Of a DNA stretch of 64,000 nt, positions 14,708-59,116 are shown piece by piece (the first letter of the stretch is position 1; the number at the start of each line of letters is the position of its first letter). A program made the translations under genes and the position numbers. The DNA lies in NCBI GenBank assembly GCA_964016885.1, contig OZ024749.1, positions 40,672,001 through 40,736,000 of the forward strand. Direction: 5' to 3'. This DNA is from Eledone cirrhosa. Its lineage: Eukaryota. The notes below the pieces were generated by a model, which was not told the origin of the DNA, made no database searches, and worked only from the letters and a program-made list of their open reading frames with translations.

Positions 14708-14923
14708 CCTATGCTCCGATGATTCCAGACATCCCTCATGAAGAAACAATTGTCAGCAAATAAATGTATTAAACTAAGATTTGATTGTTTTAACACTTTG
14801 TATATATATATACATATACATATACATGCATATATATATACATGTATTATATACGTTAGTATACATATATATATACGTATATATATATATATATATATAT
14901 AAATATATATGAAAAAGTTTGTC

Positions 14924-14989
14924 CTCATCAGTGGCCTTCCAACCGTCGTAGGCATTTCGTCGCATTAAAGGCCATATACCTCAGGTTGG
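14924..14989 (-). ncRNA. Permuted hammerhead ribozyme candidate (family H, variant 1), left arm of fold-back
   Basis: Reverse complement of 15148-15213. Confidence 0.6.
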
Positions 14990-15147
14990 TGCGAGCAACA
15001 GCTGAAAAAAGTCGTTGTGTCACGTAAATAAGGGGGACGCTAGGGTAAACAAACAAAATGGTTTAAGCAACAGAAAGTGTTTGTTTGTTTACCCTAGCGT
15101 CCCCCTTATTTACGTGACACAACGACTTTTTTCAGCCGTTGCTCGCA

Positions 15148-15213
15148 CCAACCTGAGGTATATGGCCTTTAATGCGACGAAATGCCTACGACGGTTGGAA
15201 GGCCACTGATGAG
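15148..15213 (+). ncRNA. Non-circularly permuted hammerhead ribozyme candidate with k-turn (family H, variant 1)
   Basis: CCAACC-UGA-GGUAU-A^-UGGCCUU-uaaugcga-C-GAA-AUGCC-UAC-GAC-GGUUGG-AAGGCCA-CUGAUGA-G; predicted cleavage after 15162. Confidence 0.7.
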
Positions 15214-15263
15214 GACAAACTTTTTCATATGTAACCCATTTGCAGCGCCGCAGCTCCATTATT

Positions 15264-15341
<78 letters not shown>

Positions 15342-58182: not shown

Positions 58183-58850
58183 ATTGCTCGCACCAACCTG
58201 AGGTATATGATTTTTAATGCGATTAAATACCAATGATGGTTGGAAAATCACTGACGAAGGACTATTTTTATCATATGTAACCCATGTGCAACCACGCAGT
58301 ATTCTTCTTTCTTCTCATGTTTTTTTTATATATATTTACCTCGGCTGCGTTTGTCTGTTTCTCTCTTACTGCTTCCCCGTTCTCACTGTTGCTCTCACCT
58401 TCTTTCGCCCCCTCTGTCAGTTACACTTTCTCTCGACTGACCTCTTCCTCGCACTTCCACTCACTCACTCTCTTGTTTCTCCCCTTCTCACTTCCTCCCG
58501 TTTGGCTTGTAGTGGGTTCTCTTTTTGCTCACATCTCACTCACGTCGGACGGTCTGTATCCCGATCGCTCATGAAATCCACCCAGTTTATGCTGACCGGA
58601 TAACCATGTTGCTTGTTTATTCCTATCTTTGCGTTGCTTTCATCCTTCTATGTTGTTTACTTGTCTCACTCGCTTTACGCGATTTACTTGTCCCAATAGC
58701 TTTATTTAGCTATTGCTCGCACCAACCTGAGGTATATGATTTTTAATGCGTTGAAATACCAATGATGGTTGGAAAATCACTGACGAAGGACTATTTTTAT
58801 CATATGTAACCCATGTGCAACCACGCAGTATTCTTCTTTCTTCTCATGTT
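58183..58850 (+). mobile_element. Non-coding element with about 140-bp direct terminal repeats, each carrying a family H motif (58193-58258, 58722-58787)
   Basis: Repeats 529 bp apart; pyrimidine-rich non-coding interior related to 52355-52560 and 49200-49385; TA-repeat flanks. Confidence 0.7.
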
Positions 58851-59116
58851 TATATATATATATATATATACATACATGTGATGCGGACATGTTAACCGTA
58901 TTTCAGGCAGATGTTTGGAGCCGTGCCCTATCATACAGATCATAGGTCAACAATGCATTAAATGTTTTGGTCATTTTGTTTGGTCACTAATTGGCCAGCC
59001 AGCTCTGTGGACCTATAACAATAAATACTTGCATTTCAATGGTCTGAGGGATACAACACCGTGGGAGGGGGGAGGGGGGTTAGTGGAATCGCAAACAACT
59101 CCACACCCAAAACATG

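Follow-up and report, generated by a model that had tools for sequence, protein, structure and literature searches.

The window analysed here, 64,000 nucleotides of the Eledone cirrhosa genome (assembly GCA_964016885.1, contig OZ024749.1, positions 40,672,001 to 40,736,000 of the forward strand), contains six copies of a 66-nt motif at 14924-14989 (-), 15148-15213 (+), 49388-49453 (+), 52287-52352 (-), 58193-58258 (+) and 58722-58787 (+), as a first-pass annotation of this DNA had reported. The sequence variants described there for stem I, the outer helix, stem III and the 10.1-11.1 pair are present, as are U or C at N7 and the G12U change in the 58193 copy, and A15162, A49402 and A58736 are the correct positions for the predicted cuts. 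In all six copies the blocks run in the order cleavage site, GAAA, CUGANGA (S-G-C). The expectation that standard models would miss the motif was borne out in Rfam searches, which gave no hammerhead match at gathering score over the whole window (a weak tRNA match alone) and, over 14850-15300, 42 matches at E<=10 that include no hammerhead. A canonical type I, II or III hammerhead (S-C-G within one unit) is rejected on the basis of this block order and the Rfam result. DNA searches of the 3.0-Gb host genome define seven subfamilies, A to G, of which A, B and C are present in the window, and the six copies represent four insertions: one inverted pair, two singles, and one tandem pair 529 nt apart. 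The features are as follows.

14904-15282: inverted pair of copies
15080-15282, plus strand: family A copy, 5'-truncated, with a (TA)n end (match to the 624-nt family A unit)
14904-15079, minus strand: inverted partner, joined 5' end to 5' end; ribozyme 14920-15021, predicted cut after A14975
15116-15119, plus strand: 5' strand of the closing helix P0; family sequence GUCC, altered by mutation in the 15148-15213 copy
15120-15141, plus strand: hairpin H, an insertion in stem II that forms in the most frequent upstream sequence of families A, B, D, E and F
15143-15147, plus strand: leader, the 5' strand of stem II; partner 15173-15177
15148-15153, plus strand: 5' strand of the stem I-II interaction helix; partner 15193-15198
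15157-15169, plus strand: block S, comprising a stem III strand, U16.1, A17 and a stem I strand; predicted cut after 15162
15173-15186, plus strand: block G, comprising a stem II strand, C11.1, GAAA and a stem III strand
15193-15213, plus strand: interaction strand, stem I strand, CUGAUGA core and G10.1
15213-15217, plus strand: 3' strand of P0; GUCC/GGAC in families A, B, C, D and F, AUCC/GGAU in E
49357-49457, plus strand: family C ribozyme, within a copy of about 49238-49502
52283-52384, minus strand: family B ribozyme, within a copy of about 52209-52557
58188-58262, plus strand: family B ribozyme carrying G12U, which has lost the hairpin and the P0 5' strand
58193-58721, plus strand: complete 529-nt non-coding family B unit, between two ribozymes
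58690-58791, plus strand: family B ribozyme, stem II with one mismatch; (TA)n end of the element near 58868

The full motif is about 100 nt long, and the 66-nt boundary given by the annotation is too short, since it omits the 5-nt leader responsible for most of stem II, the upstream hairpin and the closing helix. Transcription constructs proposed on that basis, with 15140, 49380 and 58715 as first positions, contain the stem II leader but neither the hairpin nor the closing helix. A structure descriptor recovers four of the six window copies and gives no match in five shuffles. Elsewhere in the window, 34643-34842 is an assembly gap of 200 N, and the weak Rfam tRNA match lies at 888-955 within a dispersed repeat, where it is probably the head of a tRNA-derived SINE.

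Covariation across genomic copies is far stronger in the seven subfamilies than in the window alone. Majority letters for each family were taken from 265 of 273 anchored rows, some of which are one copy in overlapping loci (171 distinct copies), and the majorities are 52-87% identical between families over 71 columns, while identity within families A to C is 96-99%. In the table of 24 pairs by seven families, 163 of 168 cells pair, compared with 132.7 +/- 3.2 in shuffles (0/20000 as high), a control that overstates significance because the subfamilies are related. None of the 11 core columns varies as against 35 of 46 stem columns, an invariance that is partly built in because core motifs, matched with no more than 2 mismatches, served as anchors for the rows; the families were originally picked up by plain DNA similarity, before core anchoring. 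In 18 real copies, 93% of 432 cells pair (30-45% in slid controls), with two-sided changes at 18 of the 24 pairs.

Stems I, II and III flank the core in all seven families, and the tertiary contact between stems I and II takes the form of a 6-bp helix. All six pairs of this helix are present in 7/7 families, five with two-sided change, and its strands are swapped whole between families (CCAACC/GGUUGG, CCGACG/CGUCGG, CUAGCC/GGCUAG, CUGAUU/AAUCAG and CUGGAG/CUCCAG). Stem II is the unusual element. Positions 10.2-10.3 do not pair with 11.2-11.3 in any of the seven families, and for this reason a stem II built from the 3' strand beyond 10.1 is rejected. Pairing at 11.2-11.3 is instead supplied by the 5' leader, with compensatory changes, and only 10.1-11.1 is formed from the 3' side; leader pairs 1-4 are present in 7/7 families and pair 5 in 5/7, with two-sided change at three pairs. 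The 10.1-11.1 pair itself is present in 7/7 families as one of four types (C-G, U-A, U-G, A-U), and is other than G-C in 6/7 families. A non-G-C pair at this position may slow hammerhead cleavage. Upstream, GUCC of P0 is kept in 25/29 distinct family A copies and matches GGAC behind the core, becoming AUCC/GGAU in family E; hairpin H does not fold in the commonest upstream sequence of families C and G. Position 17 is C in most family F rows, and G in merely 4/265 rows over all families. Nested minimum-energy folding fails to reproduce the structure (z -0.1 to -1.8), a calculation that is uninformative here because the RNA is multiply pseudoknotted. The proposal that this is a pseudoknotted, non-circularly permuted hammerhead missed by standard models stands as the best reading, and the fold drawn here is very likely correct.

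The strand order corresponds to one that has been described and tested in vitro, as comparison with published permuted hammerheads shows. In the accessible parts of Eckert et al. 2023 (PMC10085705), this order is named type SGC and represented by 583 sequences, from metatranscriptomes only and none from genomes of known organisms; type SGC RNAs cleave in vitro at 0.007-0.19 per minute, with four stems validated by compensatory mutants, and a second type, CSG, is known from two sequences, with monomers that also cleave in vitro. As far as the same source describes the SGC ribozyme HRIMA-1, it shares with families A-G the S-G-C order, the core nucleotides, a short stem I-stem II linker, an I-II helix adjoining stem I, and one unpaired base separating stem II from that helix. 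In HRIMA-1, however, the stem II and I-II strands follow CUGAUGA and block C is unbroken, whereas in families A-G both strands precede block S, block C is split after 10.1, and P0 and the hairpin are added; HRIMA-1 comes from environmental RNA and families A-G from an animal genome. Families A-G would escape the SGC descriptor published there, which requires a further 2-6 stem II pairs behind CUGAUGAG. Type CSG has an identical cyclic strand order and a different opening point. From these sequence comparisons, we infer that families A-G are a circular permutation of type SGC, opened at the stem II junction and with block C split. In the literature, surveyed through titles and abstract openings (subscription papers and bioRxiv supplements not covered), we found type SGC and CSG hammerheads only in Eckert 2023, with no report for animal genomes or Naiads; PMC13725137, in its accessible portion, merely cites that paper. 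What is new here is the split-stem-II form of the described SGC class and its setting in an animal genome.

Each motif belongs to a non-coding, pyrimidine-rich, tandemly repeated unit with one motif per unit. Unit lengths are 614-630 nt (family A), 525-529 (B), 511-516 (C) and 538-567 (F), and none of the units has an ORF with N-terminal GIY-YIG and C-terminal RT. A 34-nt block of family A has 595 exact matches in the genome (reversed control, 0), and (TA)n lies within 200 nt 3' of 64/81, 7/18 (family C), 23/26 and 32/38 copies against a background of 27%. This (TA)n insertion bias and the inverted 5'-truncated copies are features common to other Penelope-like clades too. In 400 kb of evenly spaced genome sequence, a generic descriptor covering six block orders gave no SGC match and five other matches versus one in a shuffle, none convincing, and a profile search of the same sample found three decayed copies at two sites, from which total copies probably number thousands or more and the window is enriched. 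Between 14904 and 58868 the window holds four insertions of three subfamilies in 44 kb, as compared with two sites per sampled 400 kb, and is a local hotspot. Non-LTR retrozymes, as portrayed in the available text of PMC7229834 and bioRxiv 10.64898/2026.07.22.740005, are similar in having dispersed, non-coding tandem units of low GC with one hammerhead each and a Penelope link; those elements were defined and searched for with type I hammerheads (both papers), whereas the window units carry the S-G-C order. The motif is very probably an S-G-C hammerhead, present once per unit of a non-autonomous Penelope-like retroelement (retrozyme).

Among Penelope-like elements, the Naiad clade offers the closest resemblance. 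The accessible parts of Craig et al. 2021 (PMC8557442) describe Naiads as being without a canonical hammerhead, with some flagged 'HHR_core' or 'HHR_half_core', and as having (TA)n targets and tandem and inverted truncated copies. Inspection of that paper's supplement by eye showed the split-stem layout (closing helix, hairpin, leader, interaction helix, S, G, C) at the end of nine named Naiad consensi of several phyla, in a reading that covered 58 of 62 places of one core word and 10 places each of the other three and is not a census of the 54; line breaks in the consensus file hide matches. The relevant 3' ends, all read by eye in this supplement, are as follows.

Naiad_Amil, Aacu and Anas, corals: split-stem layout
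Naiad-2_Movir, box jellyfish: split-stem layout
Plae, acanthocephalan: split-stem layout
EuTe, clam shrimp: split-stem layout
Obim and Ovul, octopus: split-stem layout
Bfor, ctenophore: split-stem layout, stem I of only 2 pairs
One unnamed record among the Clytia entries: split-stem layout
Naiad-1, -2 and -3_Nbra and three unnamed records among the nematode entries (File S5): type CSG

The same inspection found no such motif in either Naiad_Ppla or Dcar, the latter an incomplete consensus. G10.1, too, appears by eye to come from the leader in the octopus and coral consensi, and the layout and spacer letters of the Eledone unit resemble an octopus Naiad 3' end; Naiads, as described in the parts consulted, have a GIY-YIG/RT ORF, whereas the window element has no ORF. 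A pattern made from the coral motif matches at least 120 metagenome loci, 23 of which pass the descriptor while most others are without block S, and script parsing of 20 full copies gave 10 with all helices, P0 and stem I covarying. No RT ORF lies upstream at these loci, which are on short contigs. Patterns for the window families have no matches in metagenome contigs or in viral contigs. A pattern based on the octopus Naiad ribozyme matched nothing, and one for a Naiad endonuclease matched once. On sequence grounds, the ribozyme may be the one that Naiads seemed to lack. A Naiad-type origin of the element is probable, and the chances that a Naiad is its present mobiliser are about even.

Doubt about the mobiliser arises from the host genome, where at least 154 Naiad-type RT matches are mostly interrupted by stops, yet families A-C are 96-99% identical, a contrast that counts against a Naiad as recent mobiliser. 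[quoted passage not shown] We regard this as possible and somewhat unlikely. An autonomous element carrying families A-G was found at none of 30 GIY-YIG loci (of 150 listed) or three long-ORF loci; all 33 are C-terminal-endonuclease elements with no motif beside them, and the layout and spacer letters are, by eye, like the octopus Naiad 3' end in the accessible supplement. No RT adjoins the motif copies except for one C-terminal-endonuclease fragment in locus L173. The 1096-codon frame lies at L231:275-3562, and its fetched flanks are without hammerhead. Families A-G have no match within 1 kb behind 21 Naiad-type RT remnants; an S-G-C hammerhead does lie 629 nt downstream of one of the 21, L419 (0.01 in shuffles). 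The L419 hammerhead (G000:C5 near 27610711, minus strand) has its stem II and interaction strand on the 3' side, as in HRIMA-1, and L418 contains a decayed homolog. The decayed RT at L412 is Naiad-type by motif only and is 17% identical to a C-terminal-endonuclease element. The 3' regions of the Naiad-type remnants L412, L416, L420, L427 and L431 share a decayed segment with a hairpin before GAAA, in two instances seen in tandem, possibly another eroded ribozyme.

Judging from the tested relative and from genomic 5' junctions, intact copies quite likely self-cleave. In the mechanism that we propose, the strand for stem II and the I-II helix would sit at the 5' end, stems I and III and the I-II helix would form as in type SGC, and the base behind CUGANGA would pair with 11.1, with the closing helix and hairpin completing the stem II junction. 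A read-through transcript of tandem units would then cut itself after AUA or AUC, once per unit, and give unit-length RNAs, perhaps circularised, for which a Penelope-like RT/endonuclease acting in trans, most likely of the Naiad clade, would prime reverse transcription at TA-rich DNA. A template whose 5' end is generated by the ribozyme should yield copies that begin at the cut or slightly 3' of it. Metagenome starts were counted with gapped, de-duplicated alignments, and 100 of the 120 matches listed were left after 18 near a contig end and two duplicates had been dropped. Fifty-five of these 100 start within 13 nt of the anchor (cut at 11), eight of them exactly at the cut and 16 at 11-13; beyond the cut there are four at 14-32, 25 at 33-94 and 16 further up. 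The 5' ends thus step down sharply at the predicted cut (16/100 at the site versus four in the next 19 nt), and short-insert bias could inflate the first class but not produce the step. For family A we used the first 100 listed of 595 matches (62 newly fetched, 38 from earlier searches), with one internal deletion excluded, and counted 13 starts within the 17 positions that comprise the cut and the sites 3' of it, versus five in the next 32 (p = 0.0013). Two inverted pairs account for four of these 13 starts, and counting each pair once by hand gives about p = 0.006. None of the 100 listed family A copies begins precisely at the cut, and the majority extend through it, the outcome expected from multimeric or circular templates. 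Many very short insertions, seen in L232-L351, run from the predicted cut to about 60-70 nt past CUGAUGA and would correspond to copies of the predicted 3' cleavage product.

An unlikely alternative is that the motif is a hammerhead-derived binding or priming signal for the transposase, which no longer cuts or does so only with protein help. Its attractions are that the 10.1-11.1 pairs are not G-C, that read-through predominates among the listed family A copies, and that, according to the available text of PMC11167929, the hammerhead of an anole Penelope-like element depended on protein and could be dispensed with for insertion in vitro; for minimal Penelope hammerheads, the accessible part of PMC4209133 describes weak cleavage. 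Set against this are the 11 core positions, alike in seven majorities down to 52% identity, the avoidance of G at position 17, the sharp 5'-end step at the cut in related metagenome copies, and the fact that multimeric or circular templates would be expected to give read-through copies. Still less probable is a strand-swapped dimer, in which S and C of one unit would combine with G and leader of the next as a canonical S-C-G (type III) hammerhead with very long inserts. Identical pairs would covary in such a dimer, the units are tandem, and animal Penelope-like and amphibian hammerheads act as dimers in the partly accessible literature, but linkers of 3 and 6 nt hold all partners within about 100 nt, Naiad consensi have a single motif at the 3' end in the supplement as inspected, SGC and CSG monomers cleave in vitro (PMC10085705, accessible parts), and the metagenome copies are short single insertions. 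Chance or an assembly artefact, suggested by the richness of the window in simple repeats, has a negligible probability and is refuted by the 595 exact matches versus 0 in the control, with compensatory changes at stem pairs and high depth of the unit in contigs of public runs (possibly the source sample) also arguing against it.

For the single-unit, self-cleaving S-G-C reading, the wider implication is that much of the Naiad clade, together with its non-autonomous derivatives across animal phyla, probably has a non-circularly permuted hammerhead as its normal 3' ribozyme. If this is true, one cyclic strand order has been opened at three points, as SGC, as CSG (nematodes) and as the split-stem-II form; animal genomes rather than viroid-like RNAs would be the largest reservoir of non-circularly permuted hammerheads, the supposed lack of hammerheads in Naiads would be an artefact of how they were searched for, and many genomic copies would owe their 5' ends to cleavage in vivo. 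A rare ribozyme topology, known until now almost only from environmental RNA, would move into animal chromosomes, and a testable answer would be at hand as to why a very abundant retrotransposon clade seemed hammerhead-free. The split form would also break the assumption, in the portion of the published work available to us, that the CUGANGA block is unsplittable, and retrozyme surveys using type I descriptors would have overlooked the whole class. Genomic 5' junctions are a potential in vivo read-out of cleavage. A separate 459-nt tandem repeat (L230:4700 and 5159) has poor stems I and II, GAAA shortly 5' of CUGAAGA, and a possible stem III.
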